Source: an uncultured Gammaproteobacteria bacterium (GTDB taxonomy: Bacteria > Patescibacteriota > Patescibacteriia > Magasanikbacterales > UBA922). Taken from it: DNA of 64,000 nt. A program made the position numbers and the translations under genes. The DNA lies in NCBI GenBank assembly GCA_964519725.1, contig CAZFKS010000003.1, positions 15,821 to 79,820 on the forward strand, read 5' to 3'. Below, one piece after another: positions 39,214-64,000 of the stretch (position 1 is its first letter; each line of letters opens with the position of its first letter). The notes under the pieces are model-generated. The model did not search any database. It was not told where the DNA came from and saw only the letters and a program-made list of their open reading frames with translations.

Positions 39214-39229
39214 GTTTCCCCGGGGAAAC
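39214..39229. promoter_or_regulatory. 16-bp perfect palindrome GTTTCCCCGGGGAAAC (copy 1), candidate operator
   Basis: 10 nt after the giant Cys-rich gene stop and about 195 nt upstream of the CTLD gene start. Confidence 0.5.
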
Positions 39230-45938: not shown

Positions 45939-45954
45939 GTTTCCCCGGGGAAAC
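45939..45954. promoter_or_regulatory. 16-bp palindrome GTTTCCCCGGGGAAAC (copy 2) in divergent promoter region
   Basis: Between the lipoprotein gene start (45829, minus) and the GHKL gene start (45998, plus). Confidence 0.5.
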
Positions 45955-48586: not shown

Positions 48587-49354
48587 TTAGGGCCCGGCCA
48601 GGGTCAAGCGTGCATGCTCGTCGGCCGCCGTTTTCAAGCACGCTTTCTTGGAAATAGCCTTCTGCACCTTCGCGTCCTCGTACCCCTGGTCACGCTGCCT
48701 CAAGAATGCTGTTCGGAGCACCTCCCAAGGGAAGATCCCGTCCACGGCGACTCTCCGTAGCTCCTCGACGGTGATAAGGATGTGAATTCGGCCGCGCAGC
48801 CAATCATGAAACAGATCACCGGCATAGCCCTTCCCGCTACCGAACCCGAATCCCGCGGCAGAGAATGCCACGCCGAAGGTGCAGCCGTGACTACTCATGC
48901 GGCCGCAGTGCTGAGCCCAATCTGCAGGCCCCATCGGAGCTATGTGGTTCTTCGCCTCCATGTAGAGGTTCGGTCCGGCGACGACCGCCATCCCAGCGCC
49001 GAGAATTCGGTCGATACGGTCGGGGAATACCTCGCCCTTACCATCGATGGTCCATCGGTTGCTGAGCCCACCTTTCTGTACGTCCCGCGCCACTCCACCT
49101 CTTTCGAGAAAGTAGCGCGCCACATCCTCCAATGGATCGCCCTTCACCGCTGTTGTCTGGTTGCCAGCCGCGGGGAGGTTTGCCTGCGTCGACGTGATAA
49201 AAGCGCGGTAGAGCTGCCGATAGGCCGCGGGATCCCAGCCGCCGAGAACCGCGTACGTGGCCTCGTACACCGCCCCCATCCCGCCAAGTTCATGAACCCG
49301 AGCGGCAATGGCCATCAGATGGCTAACATCCGGCTCAGGCGTGGGCGCGGTCAT
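48587..49354 (-). CDS. hypothetical protein translationally coupled to the 3' end of the Type ISP gene
   Basis: 255-aa ORF from ATG 49354, overlapping the upstream gene by about 20 nt. Gly-rich GFGFGSGKGYAGD segment. No family recognised. Confidence 0.45.
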   Translation of the reverse strand: MTAPTPEPDVSHLMAIAARVHELGGMGAVYEATYAVLGGWDPAAYRQLYRAFITSTQANLPAAGNQTTAVKGDPLEDVARYFLERGGVARDVQKGGLSNRWTIDGKGEVFPDRIDRILGAGMAVVAGPNLYMEAKNHIAPMGPADWAQHCGRMSSHGCTFGVAFSAAGFGFGSGKGYAGDLFHDWLRGRIHILITVEELRRVAVDGIFPWEVLRTAFLRQRDQGYEDAKVQKAISKKACLKTAADEHARLTLAGP

Positions 49355-52300
49355 CAAGGGCCCCTTCGGCCAAGAAGAACCGGATTCTGATCACCACGTC
49401 GTGCGGGCCATCGACGACGCGCGCGCACTCAGGGCAGGCGCTATTATACCGTCCTGCGAGCGCGAGGCTCTGAACACGGTCGGCGCTCGGCTCCTCCGGC
49501 CCGACGGCGCCGTTGCAGACCCGGTGATGAGGAATGAATCTCGCTCGAAACCATCCAACAAGCAGGAGCGCCAGCATGGCGTCACGAGCGGGCTCAGGAT
49601 TCCAATCTTTGCTGATCATCGCCGCAAGTGGGACTTGCCCGTCCAGCGTCGCAGCACCCACTTCAGCAGAGCGGCGTATGAACGCTGCGGCCTCCGCGGG
49701 CTCGAGGCGGAAGGTGCGCCTCAAGATCTGAATTGACCGGCCAAGAATGTCCCTGGGCGCTTCATCCTCGGCCGCCGCTGGATCCAGTTTGCCGGTCAAA
49801 CCACGAATAATCCGAACGGATTCGACCGCGACGGTGACCGCCTTCTTTAGAAGCCCAACAATATACATCGGATCGGACGACGCATCGTTCGGGTCCGACG
49901 CTATGCCGCTGTCCCTATCGGATGACGCCTCGTACTGATCCATCACCCATTCGAGGGGTGTCCGACCATTGATGACGTACTCATGTGCCTCGGGAGGGAT
50001 ACCGGCGAGCATAAGAGAAGAGTTTACACAGATACAGCTCTTGTCTACCTTCTTGCCCTCCCGCGCATATTGCATTCGGGTCACACGATAGGCACCTGGG
50101 TCGCGAGTCAGCGCAGTCCATTGCTCGCGCAGCGGGTACTCCGCTGCGGTCTCGTACCCCACATGCAGGGCAGAAAGCCTTCGACCGGCCGCAGCGAACG
50201 CGTCGAATGCACGACTCAGCGGAATGCGAGGAGGTTGGACCTTCAACTCGTTGGCGAACCGATCGCGATAATCGGGAGAGTGAAGAACGCCATAGACATA
50301 GAAGAAGATATCTTCCTTGGTGATGTCGTCTCGCGCGTAGCTGACACGGAACCAGTTTAGCGCTGCGTCTGTAATCGCCTCCCGGCGTCCACCAATTTGG
50401 TCGCCCGACGTTGCCTGAAAGAGATCAGTGGGCGACCCCTCGGCGGCGTAGACGAATCTCGGAAAGAACTGCGTGCCATCCGGAGCCACCTTCGAGTCTG
50501 GCAAGGTATCGGTCATTAGCACCGAGAACGCCCGTCGAGTTCCTGCCGCCGGCACGCAGATGGCGAGGTTCGGCGAGTTCGCCCCCGGAAACATCTCGGG
50601 GAGTTCGCCAACCAGTTCATTCATCCCGCGGTCGAAGTAGACCCACTTCTTGCAAAAGGGACGATACAACGCGCGTACGATGCGCTCTTCCGAGAACGGA
50701 TGGTCCCTTCCTGCCTTCAAAGCGTTTTTTAGACCGCGGCTCCATTTGATGCGGCGCTCGTCACGGTCAATGAAGGACTCTATGTCGAGCCATTGGGCTT
50801 TCTTGCGGCCGCTATTCGCCTTCCGGTAAGCAATGACATGCTGGTTGTAGACGGCGCTCATTCGTCGCATGTTGGCGGCCACTGCTGCAGCCGAGAAGCC
50901 ATACGCCCAGGCGTCGCGATTGGTCACGATGCCTGACGCGTACGTGCTGAACACGGTGAGCGGCTCGGTTCTGTCGCGGTCCTTTTCACCAAGCGCCAGG
51001 AGATGGCCGAAGTCGTCGCCTCGCTGTCTGACCCAGTCCCCCGCCGCGTTCGGCGTCACCTCGACCCAAGGCACTCCCTTGACGCTCTGGAACTCGGCCA
51101 CGCGCTGGAGCTTCTCGGGCGCGGTTAGGTAGTCGCCAATGTCATGGTAGAGCAGTCGCCTGGGTTGTGCCGCGGATGGATTACGCACGAGGACCGTAAT
51201 CGCGACTCCCGCCCTGCTTCCAGAACCGAATACCTTTCCGCCCTCCATCCGTGAAACAACGCCCTGGGTGCGCTGATCCCCACGAAGGTCGAAGCAATAG
51301 ATCGAGGTGAACTCGTCCCCAACACACTTCCGGAACCCGTCCATTGTCTTCTTCGACACGATGGCGCCGTTGCTTACGAACGCAATGACCCCTCGTTCCT
51401 TCAGGCGGTCGCTGGCCCATCTGAACGCCCGAATATACGAGTCGTAGAGGTTTCTTACCAAGTCCGCGCTTGAACTCGCCGCATAGGTTTGGCGGATACG
51501 TTCGTCGAGCTGAGGGTATTCGAGGTTCACGTTCCCGTCGTTCTGGCTCTCCTGCCCCACCGACCATGGTGGATTGCCAATTACGACGCGAATATCGGTC
51601 TCGTTCTGCAAAGCAGCCCGCCGATTGTTCTCTGGGAACATTGAGGCGAGGGTAGTCCCTCGCGTCTCGGTCATCTGAAAGGTGTCGGTTAGTACGATCC
51701 CCGGAAATGACTCGTATGGGGCTCCGGACAGCGCGTGGTAGGTGCTCTCGATGTTCACAGCCGCGATGTAGTACGCAAGCAAAACGAGCTCGTTGGCGTG
51801 AAGCTCTTTCAAATACTTGCGGCGGAGGTCCGCGCGGGCAATGAGGCCGCTCTGAAGTAGGCGAACGAGGAAGGTGCCTGTACCCGTAAACGGGTCCAGG
51901 ACGTGCACCCCCTCAGCCGAAAGACCGACGCCGAACTCCGCTGTCAGCACCGCCTGTACGCTGTGAATGATGAAATCCACGATCTCGACGGGGGTGTAGA
52001 CAATGCCAAGGCGTTCCGCCGTCCGCGGGAATGCGGTCCGGAAGAACTTGTCGTAAAGTTCAATGACGATGCGCTGCTTGCCTTCGGCATTATCGATCCC
52101 GCGTGCGCGGATTCGAACGCTCTCATAGAAGCTCTCCAGGGCCACCGTTTCCTTTTCGAGGTTCTCCTCCTGGAGTGCATCCAGCATCTTCTGCATGGCC
52201 ACGGAGACTGGATTCGAGCGAGTGAACTCATGCCCATCGAATAGCGCGTCGAAGACTGGGCGAGTGATAAGATGCTGCGAGAGCATTTCAATCGCGTCAT

Positions 52301-54551
52301 CTCTGCTGACGCTGGGATTCAGACTCGCTTGCAGCTCGGCAAGGAACTCTGCAAAGGCACGGCGCGCGACGCTACCCTTTCCATCCACAAGGGCCGATAT
52401 TCGAGCGACGTGACGTTCCGCGATTTCAGCAACATCCTTTGCCCAAGTCTCCCAGTAGCGCCGGTCTCCGCACTTTTCGACGATGCGCGCGTAAATGGCA
52501 TCGCGCCACTCCCCAATCTGCGGGAATGCGAGGTAGTATTGCTGCCCCTCACCATTCGGCGCGCGGCTCTGGCTCGTACCCTCGGTCTCGCGGCCCGAGA
52601 CGCCGACTACTTGGATCTGCGGTGGTCTGGTCTTGTTCAGTTCCAGCTGATTGATGGTCGCATTAAACCGGTCATCGTGCGCCCGCAGGGCCTGGAGAAC
52701 CTGCCATACGACTTTGTACTTCTGATTGTTTTTGAGGGCTTCATCCGGGCGCATGTCGGCAGGAATCCCGATAGGAAGGATGATGTACCCGTACTGCTTA
52801 CCTTCAGCTCGTCGCATCACCCGGCCAACCGACTGCACGACGTCGACGACCGAGTTTCGGGGGTTTAGAAACATGACGGCGTCGAGCGCAGGCACGTCCA
52901 CGCCTTCTGAGAGGCAGCGGGCATTCGAGAGGACCCGGCAGATCCCATCGCCGCCGGACTCTGCCTTCAGCCAATCAAGTCGTGCATTCCGCGCCAGCGC
53001 ATTGAAGGTACCATCCACATGGTCGACCTCGCACCGCAGCAGGCCTGGCTCTTCGGGATGCTCCTTGATGTAGGACTCGACAACCTGACCAAACAGGCCG
53101 GTGATTCGTTTGCTGTCTTTGATTGACCGGCAAAACGCCACCGCCCGCTTCATCGGAGCTGGGTCGGTCTCAGTCGCAGCTGAATCCTCGGTGAACCGCT
53201 TCGCGAGGCCGTTCCAGCACCCGGTGATCTTGACCGCGTCCTCGAGCCGGAGCTCGGAATCTTCGTCCGCGAGCTGCTTTTGGAACGTGCGGCTCACGTA
53301 TTTCTCGTCGACCGCGAGCACCATCACCTTGTAATCGGTGAGGAGTCCGGAGGCGACCGCTTCGGAAAACCCGAGCCGATGGAACTCCGGACCGTAGAGC
53401 CGTTCGTCGTCCATGGACGCGATCTCAGCGTCGTTCTCCTCGGCCTTCGTCTTGGTGACGTCGCTGAAGATACGCGGCGTGGCGGTCATGTATAGCCGGC
53501 GCTGAGCACGCACGAAGTCGCCGTCATGGACTCGGACGAAGTGCGATTCATCCTCGTCGGCGAGTTTCACGCCGGTCGTGCGGTGAGCCTCATCGCAGAT
53601 AATGAGGTCGAACTCCGGGAGCCCCTTTTTCTGAGCATCGGCGACTGCCTGGATCGACTGGTAGGTCGAGAAAACGACCGTGAGCTTTCCGTTGCCACCG
53701 TGCTTCCCGGCCTTTGCGAGGAGAGCGGCGTTGGTAGTGGCAGGGAACGCCAAGTCATGCGTGTGGAGGTCCTCGCTGTCGGCCGGCCGTCCGACCTGGG
53801 TATCCGAGCACACCGCGAACGCGCGAAGTTTCCGGCTCGCCTCCGAGGTCCACTCGCGGAGGGACTGAGAAAGCAGGGAGATCGATGGAACAAGAAACAG
53901 GACCGTAGCCGACTCTTTCGGAGTGAGTTCCTCGGCGATGCGAAGGGCAGTGAACGTTTTGCCGGTCCCGCAGGCCATGATTAGCTTTCCACGGGCGCTC
54001 GTCCGGAAACCATCACGTACTTTTCCTAGCGCGACCTGTTGATGCGGACGAAGGTCTTTCCGTTTGCGGAGCTGGATGTCCTCGGGCTTCCTGAGACTGA
54101 ACCGGCTCCAATCGATTGGACTTTCCGCCAGGTCCTGAACGCGAAGGCGCGTTACCGGAAGCGTCTGTCCGGTAAGCGCGTCCTCGGCATGCTTACTCCA
54201 CCGGTCAGTGGTGGAAACCAAGAGCCGGGTCGTGAAGGGTGCCTTTCCAGAGGCCGTGAAAAAAGAGTCGATATCGCCCTTCTGAAGATAGTGATCCGGG
54301 TCGAAGAACTTGCACTGGATAGCGCAGAAGCCTTCGGTCTCGCGCTCGCGCGCCACGAGGTCAATGCCCGTGTCCGGGCGGTGGCCACGCTCGGGCCATT
54401 CATTCCACAGCCACACGTCGCTGAACCGAGCCTTGTAAAGGGGGTCGGTCCGGAGATACGCCGCGATCAACCGCTCGAAGCGGTCGCCCTGGTCTCGCTT
54501 GGAGCGGGCTCCGACGCGCAGTTCGTCAAGGATGGCGTGAATCGAGGGCAT
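49335..54551 (-). CDS. Type ISP-like single-polypeptide restriction-modification enzyme: N-terminal Mrr-family PD-(D/E)xK nuclease, SF2 helicase-like ATPase, gamma-class N6-adenine DNA methyltransferase, C-terminal target-recognition region
   Basis: DTGIDLVARERETEGFCAIQCK (D...E.K nuclease); MACGTGKTFTAL Walker A; LIICDEAHRTTG DEAH box; VLDPFTGTGTFLV (MTase motif I); VIGNPPWSVGQ (motif IV NPPW); 1,738 aa. Confidence 0.75.
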   Translation of the reverse strand: MPSIHAILDELRVGARSKRDQGDRFERLIAAYLRTDPLYKARFSDVWLWNEWPERGHRPDTGIDLVARERETEGFCAIQCKFFDPDHYLQKGDIDSFFTASGKAPFTTRLLVSTTDRWSKHAEDALTGQTLPVTRLRVQDLAESPIDWSRFSLRKPEDIQLRKRKDLRPHQQVALGKVRDGFRTSARGKLIMACGTGKTFTALRIAEELTPKESATVLFLVPSISLLSQSLREWTSEASRKLRAFAVCSDTQVGRPADSEDLHTHDLAFPATTNAALLAKAGKHGGNGKLTVVFSTYQSIQAVADAQKKGLPEFDLIICDEAHRTTGVKLADEDESHFVRVHDGDFVRAQRRLYMTATPRIFSDVTKTKAEENDAEIASMDDERLYGPEFHRLGFSEAVASGLLTDYKVMVLAVDEKYVSRTFQKQLADEDSELRLEDAVKITGCWNGLAKRFTEDSAATETDPAPMKRAVAFCRSIKDSKRITGLFGQVVESYIKEHPEEPGLLRCEVDHVDGTFNALARNARLDWLKAESGGDGICRVLSNARCLSEGVDVPALDAVMFLNPRNSVVDVVQSVGRVMRRAEGKQYGYIILPIGIPADMRPDEALKNNQKYKVVWQVLQALRAHDDRFNATINQLELNKTRPPQIQVVGVSGRETEGTSQSRAPNGEGQQYYLAFPQIGEWRDAIYARIVEKCGDRRYWETWAKDVAEIAERHVARISALVDGKGSVARRAFAEFLAELQASLNPSVSRDDAIEMLSQHLITRPVFDALFDGHEFTRSNPVSVAMQKMLDALQEENLEKETVALESFYESVRIRARGIDNAEGKQRIVIELYDKFFRTAFPRTAERLGIVYTPVEIVDFIIHSVQAVLTAEFGVGLSAEGVHVLDPFTGTGTFLVRLLQSGLIARADLRRKYLKELHANELVLLAYYIAAVNIESTYHALSGAPYESFPGIVLTDTFQMTETRGTTLASMFPENNRRAALQNETDIRVVIGNPPWSVGQESQNDGNVNLEYPQLDERIRQTYAASSSADLVRNLYDSYIRAFRWASDRLKERGVIAFVSNGAIVSKKTMDGFRKCVGDEFTSIYCFDLRGDQRTQGVVSRMEGGKVFGSGSRAGVAITVLVRNPSAAQPRRLLYHDIGDYLTAPEKLQRVAEFQSVKGVPWVEVTPNAAGDWVRQRGDDFGHLLALGEKDRDRTEPLTVFSTYASGIVTNRDAWAYGFSAAAVAANMRRMSAVYNQHVIAYRKANSGRKKAQWLDIESFIDRDERRIKWSRGLKNALKAGRDHPFSEERIVRALYRPFCKKWVYFDRGMNELVGELPEMFPGANSPNLAICVPAAGTRRAFSVLMTDTLPDSKVAPDGTQFFPRFVYAAEGSPTDLFQATSGDQIGGRREAITDAALNWFRVSYARDDITKEDIFFYVYGVLHSPDYRDRFANELKVQPPRIPLSRAFDAFAAAGRRLSALHVGYETAAEYPLREQWTALTRDPGAYRVTRMQYAREGKKVDKSCICVNSSLMLAGIPPEAHEYVINGRTPLEWVMDQYEASSDRDSGIASDPNDASSDPMYIVGLLKKAVTVAVESVRIIRGLTGKLDPAAAEDEAPRDILGRSIQILRRTFRLEPAEAAAFIRRSAEVGAATLDGQVPLAAMISKDWNPEPARDAMLALLLVGWFRARFIPHHRVCNGAVGPEEPSADRVQSLALAGRYNSACPECARVVDGPHDVVIRIRFFLAEGALDDRAHA

Positions 54552-54938: not shown

Positions 54939-55625
54939 CTACTCGACCGTGCCATCGGCGCGGGCCGCGAGCTGCTCCCGGAGCGCCCCGAGCCGCTCCC
55001 ACGCTTCGTCGAGCTGGAGCCGCATCTCGCGGGCCGCCTTCTCGTCGAGCCCATCCAACTTCGCCGGCGTCAGTCGCTTCAGGTTCAGCCCGTCGAGCGC
55101 CTTCATGACCTTGCGAAGGTTCTTCACCGGCTCTGGCTCCGGCTTCCGTCCCCGCTTCTCCCCCGGAATCTCCTTGGCCCGGACCTTCTTCACCCGCTGC
55201 TCGAGCTCGCGCTTCCCGAGGTTCTTCTCGATAGCTTCGCTCGCGAGCTTCAGCTTCTTCTCCGGGTCCTTGACCGGCAGGAGGAGCTTGTGGTGCGAGA
55301 GCGGGAGCGCCTCCGCGATGTTCTCGGGCAGCTGCTTCAGCTGGTCCACGACCGCGACCGCGTTCCAGATGAACTGGTAGTTCACTCGGAGGTCCGTCCG
55401 CTCCCCGAGCTTTCGGAACGTGACGTGCTTCCTTCCGTGCGTGCGGAAGTTCGCCGTGTCCCCGTCAAAGAACCGGTCGAGGACGTACGACCCGATGGCC
55501 CGGGTCATCTCGAGGCCCTTCGCTACGTAGAGGCGGTTGATCTCGGCAACCGCCTCGGACAGCGCGGCCTCGTCGACTTCGCCACCTTCTTCCGGAACCA
55601 CTGCGAGCGTCTTCTCACGCGCCAT
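54939..55625 (-). CDS. ParB/KorB-like nuclease-domain protein
   Basis: LSHHKLLLPVKDPEKKLKLASEAIEKNLGKRELEQRVKKV resembles the ParB HTH/linker region; 228 aa. Coordinates from ORF track. Confidence 0.45.
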   Translation of the reverse strand: MAREKTLAVVPEEGGEVDEAALSEAVAEINRLYVAKGLEMTRAIGSYVLDRFFDGDTANFRTHGRKHVTFRKLGERTDLRVNYQFIWNAVAVVDQLKQLPENIAEALPLSHHKLLLPVKDPEKKLKLASEAIEKNLGKRELEQRVKKVRAKEIPGEKRGRKPEPEPVKNLRKVMKALDGLNLKRLTPAKLDGLDEKAAREMRLQLDEAWERLGALREQLAARADGTVE

Positions 55626-55692
55626 GGCGGCACCTCCAGAGCAGGGACGCTAATCCCCTCCACGCCCTAGGTCAACTCGGAATCAGGTGCTT

Positions 55693-55708
55693 GTTTCCGC
55701 GGGGAAAC
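55693..55708. promoter_or_regulatory. 16-bp near-palindrome GTTTCCGCGGGGAAAC (copy 3, one asymmetric position)
   Basis: About 68 nt upstream of the ParB-like gene start; next to element B copy 1. Confidence 0.45.
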
Positions 55709-55731
55709 ATGCCGTCCCGCAGGGACGTGCT

Positions 55732-55868
55732 TCCCCCTCTGGGGGAGGGGTGGCCGTGAAGCGGGCGGCCCTCCGGCATAGGGGGACCGAGGGGGTGACG
55801 GGGCCAGCGGCCGCCCCGCCCCCAAGGGGGGCGGAAGCGCCGCGGCCATAAGAAGATAGGCCCACCCG
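55732..55868 (-). repeat. element B copy 1: about 137-bp GC-rich multi-hairpin element just downstream of the P-gene stop
   Basis: TCCCCCTCTGGGGGAGGG...GCCGCCCCGCCCCCAAGGGGGGCGG...GATAGGCCCACCC; about 88% identical (by eye) to 61125-61263. Confidence 0.6.
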
Positions 55869-55871
55869 CAT

Positions 55872-56228
55872 TTATTCATTCTGCCTGGCCGCAAGCGCGG
55901 CGCGGAGACGGCGGGCGCGCCGGTCAAGCGAAACAAGCGTCTTCGCGAGTTCGGCCGTAGGGAGCCGGTGGTAGTACTCGAACATGACGGCTTCCCAGTC
56001 GAAGACAAGGGCGGCGTCGGGCTCGCCCGGCACCGAGAACGCGACGGACGCGGCGTAGATTTCCATCGCTATCGGCTCGTCCTGGGCGTGCAGCGTGAAC
56101 GCGAGGCCCGTCGACTCGACGAACGCCGCGAGCTGCGTCGGCGATGGGCGCCGGGATGGAAACGCGGACCGTAGCCGGTCGGCTATCCCCCGTGCGGTGG
56201 CGAGCCGGTTCTTTCGGTCGCGGGTCAT
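55872..56228 (-). CDS. small protein, family P member 1 (unknown function)
   Basis: 118 aa; homologous to the genes at 56225-56587 and 61268-62005 (QLAAFVESTGLAF...ALVFDWEAVMFE...LDRRARRLR). Confidence 0.5.
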   Translation of the reverse strand: MTRDRKNRLATARGIADRLRSAFPSRRPSPTQLAAFVESTGLAFTLHAQDEPIAMEIYAASVAFSVPGEPDAALVFDWEAVMFEYYHRLPTAELAKTLVSLDRRARRLRAALAARQNE

Positions 56229-56587
56229 AGGACTGCAAGTCGGGCGGCGAGCGCGGCGCCAACCGTCTGGGCCTCGGCGTCAAGCCGAAGAATCTCTTCG
56301 GCGAGCTCTTCCATGGTCCAGTGGCTGCCGAAGCCGAAGAGCGCTTCGTCGCCAAAGAGGGCGCCTGACACAAGGGACGTACCTGAAAGCGGAATCGTGA
56401 GTGGCGCGACGGCGACGAACGCCCGGAACCCGGTTTCCGGGTCGTGCGTGTCAATGAGCCTGACGGTAAGGTCCGAAAAAGACACGAAAGCGGCGATGTC
56501 GTCGTGCGTCGGCGCGTCCGGGAGCTCGTCTCGAAGGCGCTCGGCGAGTGCAAGAACCTCGGGTGAATAGGTCGTATCAGCGGTCAT
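56225..56587 (-). CDS. small protein, family P member 2 (unknown function)
   Basis: 120 aa; overlaps member 1 by 4 nt; shares the DDIAAFVSF...FRAFVAVAPLTIPL core with the paralogs. Confidence 0.5.
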   Translation of the reverse strand: MTADTTYSPEVLALAERLRDELPDAPTHDDIAAFVSFSDLTVRLIDTHDPETGFRAFVAVAPLTIPLSGTSLVSGALFGDEALFGFGSHWTMEELAEEILRLDAEAQTVGAALAARLAVL

Positions 56588-56993
56588 ACGGAACGGTTAC
56601 GAACAAGAGTGCGAGCCCGCGAGTGGTCGGGGCGGCGCGCGGAACACGTGGTTGCCGGTGGTGGTCGAGGTCGTGTCATAGGAGGCGGGCCGGGGCCGTT
56701 ATCCGCCCCGCGGCTCCCGCGTGGCGACTGGACTCCCTGCCCGATACCGGGAGCCGATTAGCCAGGCGGCCCGTCCACAGGTCAAGGCCCTCGGCCGCTC
56801 TCGGACGGGCGCCTTGCCGCCCGGGGGTAACCTGTGGGCGGACGTCTGGCAGGCTCAACCGGCAGGGCGGGAGGCCGGGAGCTGAGCGGGACCGCTCGTG
56901 TTCGCGTTGTCTCTCGGCTGTTGGCTGTTCGGGTGGGCCTGTCCGGCCGACGTGCGCCGTGGGGCGCCGACGGCAAGGACTCCTTATGGGGGG
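56588..56993 (-). repeat. element A copy 1: about 400-bp conserved non-coding leader directly upstream of the P-gene start codon (candidate structured RNA / regulatory leader)
   Basis: About 95% identical (by eye) to the split copy at 62006-62367 plus 62797-62853. Contains long GC stems, e.g. CGGCTCCCG...CGGGAGCCG and GGCGGCCCGTCC...GGACGGGCGCC. Track ORFs over it are Arg/Pro-rich artefacts. Confidence 0.6.
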
Positions 56994-57056
56994 AGCCGCG
57001 CCGCGGCGACTAAGTCCCCCATGGAAGCCCGGCGCGCGCGGGCGCAGCGATAGCGT

Positions 57057-57072
57057 GTTTCCCCGGGGAAAC
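57057..57072. promoter_or_regulatory. 16-bp palindrome GTTTCCCCGGGGAAAC (copy 4)
   Basis: Between the SMC-like ATPase gene stop and leader element A copy 1. Confidence 0.5.
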
Positions 57073-57172
57073 AGCATGACCTGGCGCGCTTGCGGCCACG
57101 TTCGCACCCAACCGCGTTCCCACGGCGACGGCCGTTCGTTCGCCACATTTGGCCGAGTTGCGCCACCGCTTC

Positions 57173-58957
57173 CTACTTCACTTCGCCGAGGAAGTGCGGA
57201 CTCTTGGGCCCCTGGAAGGTCGGGGCCCAGGTCTCATCGATCCCTGCCGGCACAACCTCAATATCGGTGGCGCTGTACACGAGCTGAATGGGCGGGTCAG
57301 TCGTCGAGATCATCTTCTTGAACTCAACGACGAAGTCTCGTAGGTCCTCGGCGCTCAGCTCTTGTTGACGGGGCGCATCCAAGATAAGAACTCGGGGATG
57401 CTGCCCGTTCGTCTTGAGCGAGGCTTCGACGAGTGCGGCGTGATATGCGAGCACGAACCGGGCTCGCGTGCTGCCCGAATGACCAGAACCCTTCTTGAAG
57501 ACTTCTCCGTCCACGACGAATCGAAAATCTTCATCCCACGTGACGTCGAGAGCGGTGTTAGGAGTTCGGAGGACCGCCAGCCACCTTCGCGCTGCACCGG
57601 CCAATGCTGATCGAGCGTCGAGGACCCGGTCTCCCGGGCCGCTCCGCCTCGCTCGTGGACGGAGGGAGTCAACTAACTCGGCTTCGGCCCGCTCGCGGTC
57701 GAGAAGGGCGTTGAGCTGGGCTCGCTCGCGCTCGATGCGCTGCAGCCGATCGAGACGGACCCGAACGTCACCGATCTCTCTACTCAGGGTGTCAAGCATG
57801 GCCACGACCGATTCGCCGGGGCTCCGGGCGAGGCCGTCAGTCTTCTCTTTGACGGTAGTATCGAGGGCCGCCTGCGCTTCAGCGAGCTGCGAACCAAGCA
57901 GCCCGATTTCGGTATTCGCGTCCCCGATCCCCGTGACGAAGTCCTTGAGCTGGTCCCTCAAGTAGAGCACCCGGCGGCCATATGACGCTTCCGGGTTCCG
58001 GAAAAACTGGCAACTGCCACTGCCGCACAGCCTTCGGAACACGTCGGCCGCAATTTCGTTCTGTTCGAGAGCAGACAACTCGGTCTCAATCTCGGCCTGA
58101 GCGGCTTGCACCTGCATCATCCGACGCCTCAGGGCGCCATGTCGTTGGCCTAGCTCGTCGCGAATCCTCGTTGCCTCTCGGATTCGGCCATCGTAGACCG
58201 CACTGTCCGCAGCCAACACCTCGAGTGCGGAGTACATCCGAGTTAGCTCGCGCTCCAGGGTCGCGTGCCGCTCCCGAAGTAGAACCGCGCCATCGGGGCT
58301 GGCATCGGCGCCAGTTTCGCGCTGGAGCGCTTCGAGCCCGAGCCTCTTGAACGATATCTGTTCGCGTGTGCCGCCAAGACGTTCTTCAGCGGTTCGGAAG
58401 GCAGACTTGTCGACGGGCTTGTGCTTCGGTGGCAGGTCGAGGAGCCACCGCACCACTTCCTCGCGCTGGTCTCGCACGAACGTAGCTGTCGGCTCGTACC
58501 CGGTGGTCCAGCCCCCGTCCTGCTCAACCAAGAACATCGGGCCAGCCACGCTCAGGTACGCCGGAACTGGAGAGCCGTCACCACTTGAGGTGAGAGTCCG
58601 CGGCGCCGTACCGATTCTCGGAAGTACCCACGCCGAGAGTTCTCGCTCGGTTGCGATTTCGGTGCGCTCGCCGTCAGGTCCCTGAACGCGCACCTCAACT
58701 CCCTTTGCAACGATCTGCCGTTCGAGCGTGTGCTCGCCTAGGCCATCCGTGAGAACGAGGCGGACTGCTTGGCAGCGCTCGCGCACGTCCTTCGGGAACT
58801 CCACCGGAAGCCCCAGCGCGTACATAATCGCCTTCATTACCGGCGTCTTGCCGGAGCCGTTCGGCCCGAGGACCACCGTCGTGTGGCGCCCGAAGCGGAG
58901 TTTGCCAGAGCCCCAGCCTGCTTCGCCCCGCGGGAGGATTTCGAATTCAGTGAGCAT
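57173..58957 (-). CDS. SMC/ABC-type ATPase with central coiled coil (LmuB/DdmC-like)
   Basis: VVLGPNGSGKTPVMKAI Walker A at N-terminus; long Ala/Arg/Glu/Leu-rich coiled coil; C-terminal RVLILDAP Walker-B-like box (Asp-Ala rather than Asp-Glu). ATG overlaps upstream stop (ATGA). Confidence 0.7.
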   Translation of the reverse strand: MLTEFEILPRGEAGWGSGKLRFGRHTTVVLGPNGSGKTPVMKAIMYALGLPVEFPKDVRERCQAVRLVLTDGLGEHTLERQIVAKGVEVRVQGPDGERTEIATERELSAWVLPRIGTAPRTLTSSGDGSPVPAYLSVAGPMFLVEQDGGWTTGYEPTATFVRDQREEVVRWLLDLPPKHKPVDKSAFRTAEERLGGTREQISFKRLGLEALQRETGADASPDGAVLLRERHATLERELTRMYSALEVLAADSAVYDGRIREATRIRDELGQRHGALRRRMMQVQAAQAEIETELSALEQNEIAADVFRRLCGSGSCQFFRNPEASYGRRVLYLRDQLKDFVTGIGDANTEIGLLGSQLAEAQAALDTTVKEKTDGLARSPGESVVAMLDTLSREIGDVRVRLDRLQRIERERAQLNALLDRERAEAELVDSLRPRARRSGPGDRVLDARSALAGAARRWLAVLRTPNTALDVTWDEDFRFVVDGEVFKKGSGHSGSTRARFVLAYHAALVEASLKTNGQHPRVLILDAPRQQELSAEDLRDFVVEFKKMISTTDPPIQLVYSATDIEVVPAGIDETWAPTFQGPKSPHFLGEVK

Positions 58958-59436
58958 CAGAGTAGCTCCAGACCTCGGAGTCGAACCCGCTCGTGTGCCT
59001 TTGCGAGTGATCGAACAAGCGCACCAACATCGGTAATTTGAACCCGCAGATCCGAAAGAAGTGCCCGGCCGGTGGCGGAGGTGCTGACGCGACGAAGCGA
59101 CCCCTCGACCACATCAACCAAGCCAACAGTCTCAAGAATTGCGAGACCATCGGCGCACCGAGCGCGAAGCGAAACAGACCACTTCAGTCGACTTCTCGTC
59201 CCTCCGTCCGGGTCGAATCGCTCTGCAAGCACCGCGAGTGTCCATGTGGCTAGTTCACTGGTGCGGAGTTCGCCGTGACGCGCGTGTGTCACGACAAGAA
59301 TCGCGAGTGCGATAAGAGGCGTGTGGAAGAGCGTGTCGGCCGACAGGCCAGCTACGCGGTCGAGCCCGTCGGCGTTGACCTGCAACCGGACGTTTGCCGC
59401 CATTGCTGCTTCGATCAATTGTTCGAGGGTCCTCAC
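58957..59436 (-). CDS. small middle subunit of the three-gene operon (LmuC/DdmB-position protein)
   Basis: 159-aa ORF (GTG start at 59436, or ATG 59403) overlapping both neighbours. Confidence 0.45.
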   Translation of the reverse strand: MRTLEQLIEAAMAANVRLQVNADGLDRVAGLSADTLFHTPLIALAILVVTHARHGELRTSELATWTLAVLAERFDPDGGTRSRLKWSVSLRARCADGLAILETVGLVDVVEGSLRRVSTSATGRALLSDLRVQITDVGALVRSLAKAHERVRLRGLELL

Positions 59437-60605
59437 GGCTCCGCCTCGACAGCCAGCGCCAGGATCGCGCCGAAAACGAGTGACTTGGTGAGTGGCTTCG
59501 TGGCGCCAATTGTGGCGTACCTCTGTGCGAGTGCACTCGCCTCATTCACGAGCCAGTCTAACGCCTTTCGGTCGGACACGTAGATCCGGAGCACGTCGCG
59601 GCAGTCCTTCTTTAGCAGGAGCAGGTCAGCAAGGTCGATCGTGGATCGTTCGGCGATAACCCACTCATCCCATCCCGTCTTCAGCTGACACCAGTCGGGA
59701 ATATGTGATTCGTCAATGCCGCTTCGCTGACAAAGCCGGTGAAGGCGCGAAAGAGCTACTACAGTTTGAAGGCCGGTCTCCTTAAGCGCTCGGTATCCCG
59801 TCGCCGAGAGGCTGAGGAGCTTTAGGATGTCCTCGAGGACGAGCGCCTTTTCCGACCGCAAGTCTGCCGGTGTCGACGGAAGGGCCTTCAGCACACGCTG
59901 GGACTTTCCGCGCACGACCGTGACAAGGCTTTCGCCGATGCGGAGTGCCTCGGACATTCGCAGGTCGACCTCAGAGAGCTTTCGAATTCGATTGCCGATC
60001 TCCAGCCGGCAGACGTCCTGATCGTGGAGTTTCCCGACGCACTCCTGCACGTGGAGACGCTGGAGGAAGGAGAGGAAGCTGGCCTCATCAAGACCAGGAA
60101 CCGCGGCCGGAAGGACTGCCACGACGTCCTGAAATATCCGAAGCGACTCACCGGCAAGCTGCGAATGAGAGGTGACGTTCTTCGCCTCCGTCAACAGGGC
60201 GTCGAACTCCGACGCAACCGCGGCGTTCGTGACGAAGACGAATCGGGCGCAACGCCCTCCGAAGCGAGTGGTGTGATCGAACATCTTCGGAAAAATGGCG
60301 GTCGCGTCGGCGGTGTACGGTGCCCTACGTCCTTTGAGCCCGAAGAACTCCTTCCACGACCAGGGACCTTCACTCGGCGAGCGGGTCTTCACCTGGTGGA
60401 ATCGGTACGAGATTATCGTGGCTTCCTCGAATACGTAGTCATCATGCCACTCGCAATAGATGCACACGTACTGATTTTCATCGAGAACGAGAAGCGCATC
60501 GTATGCCGCTTGATGATATTGGAACTCATAACGAGCGCCGGTGACGGCGCCGACCTGCTCGCGCGGCTCGCTCTGAAACAGTTCACGTCCGACCGGAGCG
60601 CTCAC
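59433..60605 (-). CDS. DUF4297-like (Cap4/LmuA-type) PD-(D/E)xK nuclease-domain protein, candidate effector
   Basis: N-terminus GARYEFQYHQAAYDALLVL then CEWHDDYVFEE...FHQVK fits the D...QxK restriction-endonuclease-like core; 390 aa; GTG start. Confidence 0.55.
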   Translation of the reverse strand: MSAPVGRELFQSEPREQVGAVTGARYEFQYHQAAYDALLVLDENQYVCIYCEWHDDYVFEEATIISYRFHQVKTRSPSEGPWSWKEFFGLKGRRAPYTADATAIFPKMFDHTTRFGGRCARFVFVTNAAVASEFDALLTEAKNVTSHSQLAGESLRIFQDVVAVLPAAVPGLDEASFLSFLQRLHVQECVGKLHDQDVCRLEIGNRIRKLSEVDLRMSEALRIGESLVTVVRGKSQRVLKALPSTPADLRSEKALVLEDILKLLSLSATGYRALKETGLQTVVALSRLHRLCQRSGIDESHIPDWCQLKTGWDEWVIAERSTIDLADLLLLKKDCRDVLRIYVSDRKALDWLVNEASALAQRYATIGATKPLTKSLVFGAILALAVEAEP

Positions 60606-60984
60606 CGCAGGTCACCTCTTGTCCAGTCAGTGCCTTGAGGTGCGCGCGGTCACGCACCGTAGGCAGATCCCGTTCATCGCCGATACAGTAAGTGGGGCGG
60701 AGGTAGGCGTCAATCCGGGAAATTGCGGAAGCACCGAGTTCTCTTTGGGGGAGGAGACGGAGGAGACGGCAACTTCCCGCGGTCAAATCCATGTGCGGTC
60801 CTGTCCCACTGGCTGCGCCCGAAATGCCCGTCGACAGCAAGAACAGGTGATCGTCTTCTTCGCGAACAGGGACGATGAAACGCGAGTCCAATGCCCGCAT
60901 GGGCGGGACCGCGGCTGACAGGACGTCCTCGTCGACTGGAAGGACGCCCGGGAGTGAAGATGCAGGCGCGTTGCTATCATCCAT
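60583..60984 (-). CDS. possible 133-aa ORF at the head of the operon
   Basis: ATG at 60984 lies 51 nt downstream of a GTTTCCCCGGGGAAAC palindrome and overlaps the next gene by 23 nt. No domain. Could be spurious. Confidence 0.25.
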   Translation of the reverse strand: MDDSNAPASSLPGVLPVDEDVLSAAVPPMRALDSRFIVPVREEDDHLFLLSTGISGAASGTGPHMDLTAGSCRLLRLLPQRELGASAISRIDAYLRPTYCIGDERDLPTVRDRAHLKALTGQEVTCGERSGRT

Positions 60985-61034
60985 GAGAACCCGTCCTGGC
61001 GACCGGGATTACGGAGCGTCAACGGAGCAAGCCT

Positions 61035-61050
61035 GTTTCCCCGGGGAAAC
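61035..61050. promoter_or_regulatory. 16-bp palindrome GTTTCCCCGGGGAAAC (copy 5)
   Basis: 51 nt upstream of the ORF starting at 60984. Shares flanks cctGTTTCCCCGGGGAAACacg with copy 1. Confidence 0.5.
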
Positions 61051-61124
61051 ACGCCAGGCGCGCGTTGTCGAAAGACAGCAGCCGGCCAAGCGTTCTCGTT
61101 CGCGGGCGATGCCGCGAACGGACA

Positions 61125-61263
61125 TCCCCCTCTGGGGGAGGGATGGCGGCGAAGCCGACGGCACTCCGGCACAGGGGGACGGGAGGGGGTGACGGGGCCA
61201 GCGGCCGCCCCGCCCCCCGAAGGGGGCGGAAGTGGCGCGGCCATAAAAAGATAGGCCCACCCG
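61125..61263 (-). repeat. element B copy 2
   Basis: Same hairpin series immediately downstream of the family P member 3 stop. Confidence 0.6.
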
Positions 61264-61267
61264 GCTG

Positions 61268-62005
61268 TTAGTCTTCGGTTGCTAGCATGATGGTTGCGAC
61301 GATTTCGAGCTGGTCGCCGCGGTGAACGGCTACGACAAGGGACACCGCGCCGACTTCAAACGGGAGGCGCTCGCCAAGGTCAACGCCGCCTGCGGCCTCG
61401 ATGGCTTCGCGGGCGCCGGCGAGCGCGGCGAGGATTTCGAGGCCGCCGCGGTCCTTCTCGTCGCGCGGCTTGCCAGCCCGGAGGTCCGCGAGCGCACCCA
61501 CCGTGATTGCGACCGGCACCGGAAACCCGGCCGTGCGGGCGACCCCTTCGGCATCTATGAGGACGCCGTCCCCGATTGCCTCGGCGCGGGTGTAGCTGAA
61601 CACGTAGGCGCTCCGGTCCGCGAGTCGGTCCGGCGACCGAACCGGGAACTCAAAGAGCCAGGCAAAGCGAATCGCCCGCGCCCGTTGGTCAAGGCAGTCG
61701 AGCGCGTCCGCGACCTCGGCGGGTTCAAGCGTCTCGGGCTCGCCCGGCTCGAACGCGAACGCCTCGCGGTCGAATACGAGCGCGGCCCATTCGTCCCGTA
61801 CGCCCGTCTTGACCGTAAGCGGGAGGGCCGCGGCGTAGATGGCAAAGTCGTGCTCCGCATGAAGACGCGACAGCTCGAACGCCAAGAGCGGCGAGGCGGA
61901 CACGAACGCGGCAAACTGGTAGTGCCGCGGCCGCGCGTCCGGGAACTGCTCGGTATAGGCGGTCCGAATCTCGGTAAGCGTGGGCGGCGTAGTGCGGTAT
62001 AGCAT
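61268..62005 (-). CDS. family P member 3 (245 aa, N-terminal P-family core plus C-terminal extension)
   Basis: N-terminal 115 aa align with members 1 and 2 (QFAAFVSASPLLAFELSRLHAEHDFAIYAAALPLTVK...ALVFDREAFAFEP...LDQRARAIR). Flanked by the same A and B elements. Confidence 0.5.
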   Translation of the reverse strand: MLYRTTPPTLTEIRTAYTEQFPDARPRHYQFAAFVSASPLLAFELSRLHAEHDFAIYAAALPLTVKTGVRDEWAALVFDREAFAFEPGEPETLEPAEVADALDCLDQRARAIRFAWLFEFPVRSPDRLADRSAYVFSYTRAEAIGDGVLIDAEGVARTAGFPVPVAITVGALADLRAGKPRDEKDRGGLEILAALAGAREAIEAAGGVDLGERLPFEVGAVSLVVAVHRGDQLEIVATIMLATED

Positions 62006-62367
62006 ACATGATGGTTAGTAAGAGCGGGCCACGGTACCGGGGGCGGTACGTGGTCACGGGACGGCGCGCGGAACGCCGCGGTTACCGGTGGTGGTCGAGG
62101 TCGTGTCATAGGATGCGGGCCGGGGCCGTTATCCGCCCCGCGGCTCCCGCGTGGCGACTGGACTCCCTGCCCGATACTGGGAGCCGATTAGCCAGGCGGC
62201 CCGTCCACAGGTCAAGGCCCTCGGCCGCTCTGGGACGGGCGCCTTGCCGCCCGGGGGCAACCTGTGGGCGGACGTCTGGCAGGCTCAACCGGCAGGGCGG
62301 GAGGCCCGGGAGCCTAGCGGGGCCGCTCGTATCGCGTTGGCTGTTGGCTGTTCGGGTGGGCCTGTCC
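62006..62367 (-). repeat. element A copy 2, proximal part
   Basis: Aligns from the P3 start codon through ...TTCGGGTGGGCCTGTCC, where the alignment is interrupted by a 429-bp insertion. Confidence 0.6.
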
Positions 62368-62796
62368 TTGGGCGCTCACGAGAATTGACCCGGGGTCTGC
62401 TCGTCTGGAGTGATCCAATCGCAGCGTGGGTTGGGTGGTTCGCTCCCGCGGGGTTGCGCTCGTTCCAGTCGGCTGCGAGCCGCGTCCGGCGCACGATCTG
62501 CGACTTCGAACGCAGCCGACTTCCACGACCGCCCATTGGAAGGCCACAAACCGGTTGCTGGACCGTGGGGCCTATGGCATCTTCTCCCTCGTGACGCCGC
62601 TCCGAGTGGTGTCAGCCTCCGTTGGCCCGTGGCAACCGGGCAACGTCGAGGCCATGAGCCGAAAACGTTGTACATCAAAAGTAGTTGGCGGGCGCGCGCG
62701 GTGCTTCGAGACCTGAGGAGCGCGGCTGGGCGGTCGTGTTCCGTCGGTGGATCAGTTTCGGCGAGCACGATTGGATCAGTTCAGGCGAGCACCGAA
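62368..62796. mobile_element. 429-bp MITE-like non-autonomous insertion flanked by 9-bp direct duplication GGCCTGTCC, imperfect terminal inverted repeats
   Basis: Absent from the otherwise collinear copy 1 of element A. GGCCTGTCC present at 62359-62367 and 62797-62805. Ends TTGGGCGCTCACGAGAATTGACC ... GGATCAGTTCAGGCGAGCACCGAA are imperfect inverted repeats, and GATCCAATCG / CGATTGGATC lie near the two ends. Confidence 0.5.
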
Positions 62797-62853
62797 GGCC
62801 TGTCCGGCCGACGTGCGCCGTGGGGCGCCGACGGCAAGGACTCCTTATGGGGG
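62797..62853 (-). repeat. element A copy 2, distal part (resumes after the insertion)
   Basis: GGCCTGTCCGGCCGACGTGCGCCGTGGGGCGCCGACGGCAAGGACTCCTTATGGGGG identical to 56937-56993. Confidence 0.6.
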
Positions 62854-63046
62854 CGCTGCGTCTGACTGCGGTGGCCGTCTACCTCCGAAATCAAGTCGGG
62901 AACCGCTCGCGCGTCGGTAGCACGCTTGACGTGTTCAGGGGCGGACTCGTACCGTCCTCGTTCCGCGTCCGCTCGCCCAGAAGGAGAGGCACCGAGCGGC
63001 GCAGTGGGCTCCCAAGGACCACCACGGGCAACTTTTGAGAGGCGTC

Positions 63047-64000
63047 GTGAGCTACGCACTTCGAGTCTTCGTGAGTTCAACGTGCTACGAGCTTCGCGAC
63101 TTGCGTGCGCTCATCAGGCAGTGGCTCGAAGACCATGGTCTTAGTCCGCAAATGAGCGATGCAAACGGGTTTCCAACGCATGACGGCTTGCCGCCATACG
63201 CCTCCTGTTTGCGCGTTCTGGAGGAGTGCCCGCTGGTAATCGCCGTCATCGACCGACGGTACGGCACGGTCTTCGACGACTGGGGCCCGTACGAGAAGTA
63301 TCGAGGGCTTGCACCAACGCATGCGGAAATCGTCCATGCTCTAACCCGAGGGAAAAGGACGCTTATTTTCGTACAGGAAGAACTGTGGACCTTTTACGAG
63401 GTGTGGCGCAAGAATGGCGCTATGTTCGAGGGGCCTAGTCTTCCCTCTGGTCTCCAACGAGAAACCTTGTTGATGTTCCACGAGATCAAGCAACGGAAGC
63501 CGGCGCCCTGGATACGCAAATTCGGCACGGCGACGGAGATAACGAAAGCCCTTCAACTTGAGTTTGTGAACGAGCTTTATGCTCACCTCCACGCTCGGGA
63601 GCGAGAGACGACGGATACCGCAACCTTCCTGCTTGAGAAGCTCACCGGCGCCGCTCCAAACGTCCGACAGCAGATCGAGCGCGCCCTCAACCCGGACCTC
63701 ATTCGTGAAAAGGAGGCTCTTGAGCAGCGCTTGGCGGAGATCGAGCGTCAACTCGCCGCATCTGCAGAATCGGCTGAGCAACAGGTCCAGATTCTTGAAG
63801 AGCAGAAGACCGCCGTCGCCAGGCAGTTGGATGGTGTTCGCAGTGAAGTTAGTCGCCTAAGCGTAGTCCTGGCGCATGCTGCCATACGAGATGCAACGTG
63901 GTTGGACTTGGTCCGGCGGACCCTAATGCCGAAGACGCCGGGCCGGGTACCGTTCCACAACTCTGCTGAAATCGCGCTACGCGGATTTCACGTCAACCAA
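63047..64000 (+). CDS. DUF4062-like domain protein (N-terminal VFVSSTCYELRDLR... module) with C-terminal coiled coil, 3' truncated by the window
   Basis: GTG at 63047 preceded by GAGAGG. Open frame to the window end (hence absent from track). VFVSSTxxELRDLRxxI motif is typical of DUF4062 N-terminal domains of defense proteins. Confidence 0.5.
   Translation, partial: MSYALRVFVSSTCYELRDLRALIRQWLEDHGLSPQMSDANGFPTHDGLPPYASCLRVLEECPLVIAVIDRRYGTVFDDWGPYEKYRGLAPTHAEIVHALTRGKRTLIFVQEELWTFYEVWRKNGAMFEGPSLPSGLQRETLLMFHEIKQRKPAPWIRKFGTATEITKALQLEFVNELYAHLHARERETTDTATFLLEKLTGAAPNVRQQIERALNPDLIREKEALEQRLAEIERQLAASAESAEQQVQILEEQKTAVARQLDGVRSEVSRLSVVLAHAAIRDATWLDLVRRTLMPKTPGRVPFHNSAEIALRGFHVNQ

Follow-up and report, generated by a model that had tools for sequence, protein, structure and literature searches.

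Single-strand DNA promoters of the Frpo/ssi type were reportedly described by Masai and Arai in 1997 from the leading regions of conjugative plasmids (F, ColIb-P9). Frpo/ssi promoters drive the early genes of incoming plasmid DNA, and single-strand DNA promoters are widespread, with several per island being possible (PMC11541004). Here we analyse element A, a repeat of about 400 nt that precedes small genes of an orphan family, P, in a stretch of 64,000 nucleotides (the window) from an uncultured Gammaproteobacteria bacterium (GenBank assembly GCA_964519725.1, contig CAZFKS010000003.1, positions 15,821–79,820 of the forward strand). The analysis shows element A to be a cis element that is conserved, structured and linked to P and that belongs to an undescribed family; it is probably the hairpin-rich, cis-acting head of a small gene module that is itself probably mobile. 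By analogy with Frpo/ssi, we tentatively propose that it may act as a folded single strand, in the manner of a single-strand DNA promoter or priming signal. Element A is not a member of the Frpo/ssi family and at most works alike, because the defining −35/−10 boxes are absent and no transfer machinery was recognised. The parts of element A and the P genes that follow it are, in window coordinates:

56623–56993: element A copy 1, the part common to both window copies and to the loci L003, L005 and L006
62050–62367: element A copy 2, inner part, a sequence match to copy 1
62797–62853: element A copy 2, outer part, with 100% identity to 56936–56992
62368–62796: insertion of 429 bp, resembling a miniature inverted-repeat transposable element (MITE), that splits element A copy 2
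56588–56622, minus strand: P-proximal linker of copy 1, a small hairpin and pyrimidine-rich tract, with a TTCGTAACC motif common to L003, L005 and L022
56657–56682, plus strand: conserved unpaired or weakly paired motifs GGTGGTGGTCG ... GTCATAGG
56713–56893, plus strand: core rod-like imperfect hairpin of copy 1, about 180–215 nt across loci
56945–56993: outer hairpin GGCCGACGTGCGCC/GGCGCCGACGGC and boundary motif GGACTCCTTATGGGGG (CATAAGGAGTCC on the P-sense strand)
56225–56587, minus strand: P1a, 120 amino acids, orphan P-family gene
55872–56228, minus strand: P1b, 118 amino acids, P-family gene whose start overlaps the P1a stop (ATGA)
61268–62005, minus strand: P2, 245 amino acids, a P domain (residues 1–119) fused to a DUF6573-like domain

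Element A and Frpo/ssi are both non-coding stretches of a few hundred nucleotides whose main feature is a long imperfect hairpin, formed on the strand that is the template for the genes downstream, and both occur as several dispersed copies of the same orientation upstream of small, fast-evolving genes that have no ordinary upstream promoter and lie near ParB-type and methylase genes. In particular, the leading regions of ColIb-P9 and F carry multiple Frpo/ssi repeats, an arrangement similar to that of the two copies of element A. The two differ in that the stem of element A has no −35, −10 or UP boxes, that element A has no similarity to plasmids of PLSDB (a collection assumed to include F and ColIb-P9), that no oriT, relaxase or type IV secretion system (T4SS) is seen around it, and that its setting is high in G+C and of Myxococcales type, with defence systems further downstream. 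Structured 5′ leaders (riboswitches, T-box and processive-antitermination leaders) share with element A a position directly 5′ of an operon, a conserved structure, and a hairpin and U-rich tract before the start codon, whereas element A has no Rfam match, is rod-like rather than a junction, folds better on the opposite strand, shows no upstream promoter and leads to a start codon with no Shine-Dalgarno (SD) sequence. The VCR/attC sites of chromosomal integrons are likewise closely similar structured repeats that flank unrelated or strongly diverged small genes within one genome and fold strand-specifically; element A, however, is about three times longer (about 400 nt versus 57–141 nt), the module has conserved blocks on both sides of the cassette, and the sequence is conserved between genomes too. 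No integron integrase domain was found among the open reading frames (ORFs) scanned around element A. Element A belongs to no described family; structured cis elements of mobile or defence-associated modules are, as a kind, already known.

All P genes are on the minus strand, so element A lies directly 5′ of them on that strand. In the window, blastn aligns 56623–56944 with 62050–62367 at 92.6% identity over 326 columns with small indels (E = 1e-133). The core is gap-free over 233 nt (56647–56879 versus 62077–62309) at 97% identity, and the outer 57 nt (56936–56992 versus 62797–62853) are 100% identical. The repeat is genuine and lies well past chance expectation. An earlier reading made from the letters alone (hereafter the sequence-only reading) had described a near-identical leader immediately upstream of the P genes; this description holds for the core and the outer 57 nt, but not for the 35 nt beside the ATG (56588–56622), where conservation between the window copies is weak. 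Moreover, the insertion divides copy 2. Indels between the copies (1 nt at 56646, 1 nt at 56874 and 8 nt at 56902–56909) all break the frame; element A is therefore non-coding, and a coding role is ruled out. About 13 point differences separate the copies in the conserved part, at least nine of them at unpaired positions; among differences in pairs, two are compatible with a wobble, two gain or lose a pair and none is doubly compensatory. According to the sequence-only reading, several differences look compensatory or fall in loops. Most do lie at unpaired positions; the example given, CTCGG versus CTGGG at 56802, sets a C·C mismatch (copy 1) against a G-C pair (copy 2) and is no compensation.

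An N-terminal domain of about 115 amino acids is common to the P proteins, at 31–45% identity, in agreement with the divergence to roughly one-third amino-acid identity noted earlier. Within the window, element A is 91% identical overall and 97% identical in the core, while the first P gene is 47% identical in nucleotides and 31% in amino acids. Between loci, the corresponding values are 55–71% overall and 64–80% in the core for element A, and 38–55% in nucleotides and 22–47% in amino acids for the first P gene. The sequence-only reading was right that element A is better conserved than the P genes; it evolves more slowly than they do in every comparison, including those between loci. The 97% identity within the window is in itself no evidence of selection, because the core is only 64–80% identical between genomes; the near-identity of the two window copies instead reflects recent duplication or homogenisation within the genome, and not selection alone.

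Conservation of element A reaches beyond the two copies. An exhaustive HMMER search with a P-domain profile over 1.84 billion representatives returned only three outside P relatives (P0004 to P0006), which come from the following loci:

L003/L004/L009: Myxococcales MAG_44 (GCA_018780435.1), plus a Logan assembly
L005 and L006: Logan assemblies

On the contigs of all three outside P relatives, a homologue of element A (nhmmer, E about 1e-83) lies directly 5′ of P in the same orientation. Two further metagenome contigs, L022 and L023 (JGI 3300032523 and 3300033064), start inside element A, and its last 123 nt (positions 1–123) precede a P gene; such breaks would be expected if the element were repeated in those communities. 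On L022 and L023, P and a DUF6573 gene are followed by a third P-like gene that stops at about 14 codons (about 43 nt), with unrelated genes in its place. The alignment of element A comprises five sequences (W1 and W2 from the window, L003, L005 and L006), only four of which are independent. On the P-sense strand, the invariant blocks CATAAGGAGTCC, GGCCCACCCG, GAGCCTGCCAGACGTCCGCCCACAGGT, GGGCCTTGACCTGTGGACGG, ACGGGCAGGGAGTCCAGTCG and TATGAC-N7-CGACCACCACC alternate with stretches that vary in sequence and length. The last of these blocks is the P-sense form of 56657–56682; its spacing is the same in W1, W2, L003 and L005 among the five aligned sequences (not in L006), and it is present with this spacing in L022 too.

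The family is rare, with no more copies among plasmids, phages, viral contigs and GTDB representative genomes. Specifically, blastn against phages gave no match, exact-word scans of viral contigs (two 22–24-mers) and of genome contigs (one word) found no further copies, and a further pattern scan of viral contigs was empty. A two-block pattern returned 12 genome matches and one viral match, of which only L009 is real (it is the L003 contig) and the rest are chance. An exact 22-nt match to GGCTGTTCGGGTGGGCCTGTCC at positions 560–581 of a metagenome contig (L002, Ga0194120_10005146) lies 25 nt upstream of the start codon of a glycosyltransferase operon; its flanks are unrelated to element A and nhmmer gives no match, so it is probably a chance match. 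The 877-nt non-coding region before a DUF6573 gene of Stenotrophomonas plasmid NZ_CP102943.1 (L020, 1307–2183) has a layout similar to that of element A, with a C-rich sense strand and repeated CCTACGGG hairpins, and has no homology to it.

The fold of element A is dominated by the core hairpin. Its two arms, at 56761–56790 (GCCAGGCGGCCCGTCCACAGGTCAAGGCCC) and 56830–56856 (ACCTGTGGGCGGACGTCTGGCAGGCTC), are near-invariant, whereas its tip (about 56791–56829) differs between loci in length and sequence, and two or three smaller hairpins accompany it, one flanking it on the outer side (56945–56974) and one on the inner side (about 56650–56712). The long GC stems that the sequence-only reading had pointed out are present in the folding results. 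In the consensus structure of the window plus strand, 86% of cells in the five-sequence alignment form standard pairs, compared with 41–46% when partner columns are slid by 1–3 columns, and 23 pairs have changed on both sides, compared with 4–12 in the slid control. On the P-sense strand, 86% of cells are paired (31–46% slid) and 16 pairs have changed on both sides (3–7 slid). None of 500 shuffles on either strand matches the observed pairing values. Furthermore, both arms of the conserved stem are changed in compensating fashion in L005, and the outer hairpin GGCCGACGTGCGCC/GGCGCCGACGGC covaries between loci, with conservation stopping at the GGACTCCTTATGGGGG boundary in every locus. A homologue of element A precedes every P-family gene with retrievable upstream DNA, and pairing in the alignment stands above both the shuffle and the register-shift controls; on these points the earlier interpretation is supported.

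Its statement that the element matches no recognisable RNA family also stands. Rfam gave no match in the whole window at gathering thresholds, a permissive Rfam scan of 55500–63100 gave chance-level hits only (E 0.33–5.9, far below gathering scores), and a tRNA/tmRNA scan found none. A retron msr-msd is ruled out, there being no reverse transcriptase (RT) domain in the neighbouring ORFs of the window or of L003.

Element A folds better on the plus strand, which is complementary to the P mRNA and is the template strand. The core hairpin alone has z-scores of −4.4 to −5.3 on this strand and of −1.5 to −4.4 on the sense strand, where it is weaker in all five sequences, with free-energy differences between strands of 14–29 kcal/mol. 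With DNA parameters, the template strand reaches −67 kcal/mol (z −4.08, 0 of 200 shuffles) and the sense strand −58.4 kcal/mol (z −2.08). Likewise, RNAalifold gives −119.6 kcal/mol and 124 pairs for the plus strand, and −90.2 kcal/mol and 95 pairs for the P-sense strand. The asymmetry lies in the long hairpin, with little of it in the flanking hairpins. The sense strand of element A is 41% C, with C/A-rich unpaired stretches.

In the reading that we tentatively prefer, element A, folded as a single strand, would control how the P genes are expressed. On entry into a new cell, for example, the module would have a single-stranded template strand, and the hairpin would then offer RNA polymerase a duplex entry site. 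The P/DUF6573 genes would be made first, with candidate establishment or anti-defence functions, and the transcript would pass through the small hairpin and the U-rich tract into the SD-less start codon. Such a mechanism would account for the strand that folds, the invariance of both arms, the presence of two same-orientation copies (dispersed, 5.4 kb apart), the lack of an ordinary P promoter and the plasmid-like neighbours.

Several observations weigh against this proposal. The −35/−10 boxes of Frpo type are absent from the hairpin arm where they are expected, and none of 72,556 PLSDB plasmids matched 55700–57100 in blastn (word size 11, E ≤ 1e-3), a search that included no direct alignment to the Frpo sequences of F or ColIb-P9. 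In 32–64 kb of the window and in L003, both on incomplete contigs, no gene for a relaxase, T4SS, integrase, replication or RT was recognised, and that the element is transferable is an assumption. Further downstream lie defence systems (a Type ISP restriction-modification enzyme and Lamassu) rather than known anti-defence genes. The strand signal agrees with the proposal without being decisive, since the G-rich strand of any GC-rich palindrome gains G·U pairs, and the stem does hold conserved positions that are wobbles on the sense strand. Covariation among only four independent sequences is supportive, not conclusive, and the GC hairpin and U-rich tract before the ATG fit a sense-strand leader equally well. 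A stronger form of the proposal would make element A the first instance, beyond the enterobacterial Frpo/ssi family, of a promoter or priming element that is active as a single strand and independent of sigma-70 boxes, heading mobile modules in Myxococcota-type genomes and driving immediate expression of P/DUF6573 proteins that counteract or regulate the adjacent restriction/defence genes; we consider this form unlikely.

The alternative that survives best, which we regard as doubtful and yet as a serious candidate, is that element A is a sense-strand leader RNA, the long structured 5′ untranslated region of the P operon mRNA with an attenuator-like hairpin and U-rich end, in which the fold, or a factor binding the invariant blocks, controls read-through or translation of the SD-less P start. 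Consistent with this alternative, element A lies directly 5′ of P at all loci, always at the same position and in the same orientation, and the sense-strand structure is itself supported by the paired fraction, the doubly changed pairs and the shuffles given above. In every homologue, a GC hairpin of differing sequence is followed by a pyrimidine/U-rich tract (CUUCUUUCGUAACCCGUUAUG) straight before the ATG; the proximal hairpin pairs covary (A4 columns 456/493 and 457/492), but these hairpins are not called by a simple terminator scanner. No SD sequence precedes the P start codon in any homologue, including P1a.

No promoter for such a leader was found. A search of both strands for sigma-70-like sites (TTGACA-N16–18-TATAAT, at least 8/12 matches, A2 and T6 required) was negative in all five sequences, promoter-tool scans of the homologues are negative too, and no sigma-54, extracytoplasmic-function (ECF)-type or oriT nic-like motif is, by eye, conserved across homologues. 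The outer-edge flanks are unrelated from locus to locus, being the lmuB 3′ end (copy 1), a divergent DUF4062 gene (copy 2), a STAND-like gene (L003) and an unrelated fragment (L005), with a divergent gene in three of the four contexts. Transcript could be supplied by read-through from lmuB, which lies upstream on the same strand, but for copy 1 only. The mutual unrelatedness of the DUF4062 protein, the STAND-like protein and the L005 fragment rules out element A as the shared divergent leader of a conserved far-side gene. In each of the five sequences, the fold of the sense strand, which is C-rich, is weaker and stands out less from shuffles; no Rfam family matches, and known riboswitches or leaders do not have the architecture of a rod-like hairpin with arms of about 85 nt. 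Of the structured functional leader RNA proposed by the sequence-only reading, the structure, the non-coding nature and the conservation beyond two copies stand, while a role as P-mRNA leader is somewhat disfavoured by the strand evidence. A riboswitch-like ligand sensor finds no specific support, the element being a long rod-like hairpin and not a compact multi-helix junction.

A divergent or antisense non-coding RNA, about 400 nt in size, would also explain the strand asymmetry; it would run on the window plus strand from near the P start codon to the GGACUCCUUAUGGGG boundary and act in cis as antisense to the P 5′ region, or in trans. We consider this rather unlikely. Four G·U pairs of the plus-strand fold are invariant in all five sequences (A6 columns 190/371, 235/330, 461/516 and 462/515), and conservation ends, on the outer side, at the base of the plus-strand helix that encloses the covarying hairpin (helices 14 and 15). 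On the plus strand, however, neither a promoter-like site close to where P starts nor a terminator at the outer boundary was seen; in copy 2, the 3′ domain would be severed by the 429-bp insertion, and again no Rfam family matches. Furthermore, an RNA acting in trans would not require strict linkage to P.

Less probable still is a role of the double-stranded DNA, in which element A, together with a conserved 3′ block described below, would be a flank or recombination site for exchange or inversion of the P/DUF6573 cassette, or a protein-binding array at the end of a mobile module. A short inverted repeat bears on this view:

56931–56943, plus strand: 13-nt repeat GGGTGGGCCTGTC
55855–55867, minus strand: inverted partner GGGTGGGCCTATC, 4 nt past the P1b stop codon

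In both copies, this 13-nt inverted repeat GGGTGGGCCTRTC (AGGCCCACCCG ... CGGGTGGGCCT) encloses the P genes and most of element A, the copy 2 repeats being at 61250–61262 and 62354–62366. In the L003 counterpart (about 5708–5720 and 7173–7185), complementarity is shifted (GGCCCACC-CGGCG / CGCCGGTGGGCC) yet kept. The inverted repeat could be a long-range 5′–3′ pairing, or a pair of recombination or binding sites. Conserved flanks do surround variable content (P and P; a P-DUF6573 fusion; P, DUF6573 and P), conservation ends abruptly at the outer edge beside unrelated neighbours, both hairpin arms are near-invariant even at conserved mismatches of both kinds, the L022 and L023 contigs break within element A, and the MITE-like insertion lies exactly at the 13-nt repeat. 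We nevertheless judge such a role quite improbable: no recombinase, invertase or transposase was recognised nearby, the inverted repeats lie inside the conserved blocks and not at their ends, no target-site duplications are present, and the variable-length, self-complementary tip and the consistent strand asymmetry point to single-strand folding.

Element A as the end of a MITE or insertion sequence was rejected, since the 13-nt inverted repeat lies 50–130 nt inside the conserved blocks and has no flanking direct repeats. Unlike element A, the 429-bp insertion does show terminal inverted repeats (imperfect, TTGGGCGCTCAC / TTCGGTGCTCGC) and a target duplication, the 9-bp direct repeat GGCCTGTCC at 62359–62367 and 62797–62805. 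The insertion also contains a 24-nt internal inverted repeat (62398–62421 / 62768–62791) and a tandem 24-nt repeat close to its right end.

That element A is merely a recently duplicated intergenic segment of no function, as the 97% identity of the window copies and the lack of doubly compensatory changes between them might suggest, is very improbable indeed, being contradicted by homologues that keep invariant 20–27-nt blocks in at least three other sources while the adjacent P is at 22–36% identity.

The module has the order element A, one to three small orphan genes (P and/or DUF6573), 3′ block, parS-like palindrome, ParB/KorB-like gene, and restriction/defence genes. The features beyond element A and the P genes are:

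54939–55625, minus strand: ParB/Noc helix-turn-helix (HTH)-like protein, 228 amino acids, 43% identical to the L003 equivalent
55725–55868: first copy of the conserved, hairpin-rich 3′ block, which in L003 can also be recognised behind the last P gene
61118–61263: conserved 3′ block, copy 2
55693–55708: parS/Noc binding site (NBS)-like palindrome GTTTCCGCGGGGAAAC, upstream of the promoter-like site of the ParB-like gene
57057–57072: perfect palindrome GTTTCCCCGGGGAAAC, between the lmuB end and element A copy 1
61035–61050: perfect palindrome GTTTCCCCGGGGAAAC, after 3′ block 2
39214–39229, 45939–45954, 55693–55708, 57057–57072 and 61035–61050: all copies of the 16-bp palindrome GTTTCCCCGGGGAAAC
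57173–60605, minus strand: complete Lamassu system, with LmuA carrying a Cap4 nuclease domain, LmuC and LmuB
49335–54551, minus strand: Type ISP restriction-modification enzyme

Read along the minus strand, the order is element A copy 2, P2, 3′ block 2, palindrome, an ORF of 133 amino acids and Lamassu, followed by a palindrome, element A copy 1, P1a, P1b, 3′ block 1, a palindrome, the ParB/Noc-HTH-like gene and the Type ISP enzyme. Lamassu thus lies exactly between the two module copies, and Lamassu and the Type ISP enzyme are each downstream of one A-P module. The 3′ blocks follow the P stop codons and are 89% identical to each other. The L003 module consists of element A, P, a DUF6573-like gene, a P-like gene, 3′ block, palindrome and ParB-like gene, downstream of which are a protein with a restriction endonuclease (REase)-like domain and an N6/N4 methyltransferase. 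The whole of 55725–56993 and of 61118–62367 (3′ block, P coding sequence and element A) has more G than C on the plus strand (skew +0.04 to +0.15); the P genes are for this reason C-rich on their sense strand, unlike neighbouring minus-strand genes (skew −0.13 to 0).

The palindrome GTTTCCCCGGGGAAAC, which we take to resemble a parS or Noc binding site, has five copies in the high-GC half of the window versus 0.35 expected, one of them with a single mismatch, and a similar palindrome precedes the ParB-like gene of L003 (7377–7392). The ParB-like gene has a promoter-like site, TTGACC-17-TAGCGT, and a GGAGG, both read by eye; the scanner reported no site. In context only, the arrangement resembles KorB/ParB-operator regulons, in which a ParB-HTH protein is accompanied by several 16-bp parS/NBS-like palindromes before operons including its own gene, and suggests that palindromes and ParB-like gene form a putative KorB-like operator set. 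It differs from these regulons in that the protein matches the HTH domain only, neither a ParA gene nor the CTPase N-domain of ParB was recognised, and the operator role is a prediction.

Among Pfam, PHROG, NCBIfam and PADLOC, the P proteins belong to no family, apart from a sub-threshold DUF6573 match in the C-terminal half of P2. Word-indexed protein database searches returned self matches only (P2 being an orphan), and an AlphaFold model of P (predicted local distance difference test, pLDDT, 74) has no significant fold match in the PDB. The DUF6573-like domain, fused in P2, is a separate gene in L003 and L005. In two plasmids examined, DUF6573 genes belong to long arrays of small hypothetical genes that are all on one strand, with RadC beside one array (Thermobacillus) and a T4SS-type transglycosylase beside the other. 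Together with the palindromes and the ParB-like gene, these plasmid-borne relatives hint at a mobile element.

All features discussed around element A lie in the high-GC part of the window. A step in G+C at about 31800, from about 43% (1–31.7 kb) to about 60–62% (31.8–64 kb), may mean that the contig is chimeric or that the high-GC part is a large foreign island. The low-GC part encodes HisRS, a signal peptidase, YqeY, DHBP synthase, an ORF of 3762 amino acids and a protein with a T4SS-pilin domain. In the high-GC part, a cysteine-rich repeat protein of 1962 amino acids with MopE-type and Dictyostelium-type repeats (39239–45127, minus strand) is the source of the direct-repeat families at 40–43 kb, and beside it lies a protein of 777 amino acids with a C-type lectin domain (36685–39018, minus strand); we assume the features of these two proteins to be typical of Myxococcota.

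Should element A indeed function in a folded, single-stranded form, promoter or priming signals of the single-strand type would reach beyond a few enterobacterial plasmid sequences into high-GC environmental bacteria, and the P and DUF6573 proteins would be candidate early-expressed establishment or anti-defence factors. If it acts as RNA instead, it would represent an undescribed structured RNA family of about 400 nt that is tied to defence-island genes. Either way, element A provides a sequence and structure signature for finding modules of this kind, the best blocks being GAGCCTGCCAGACGTCCGCCCACAGGT, GGGCCTTGACCTGTGGACGG and ACGGGCAGGGAGTCCAGTCG.

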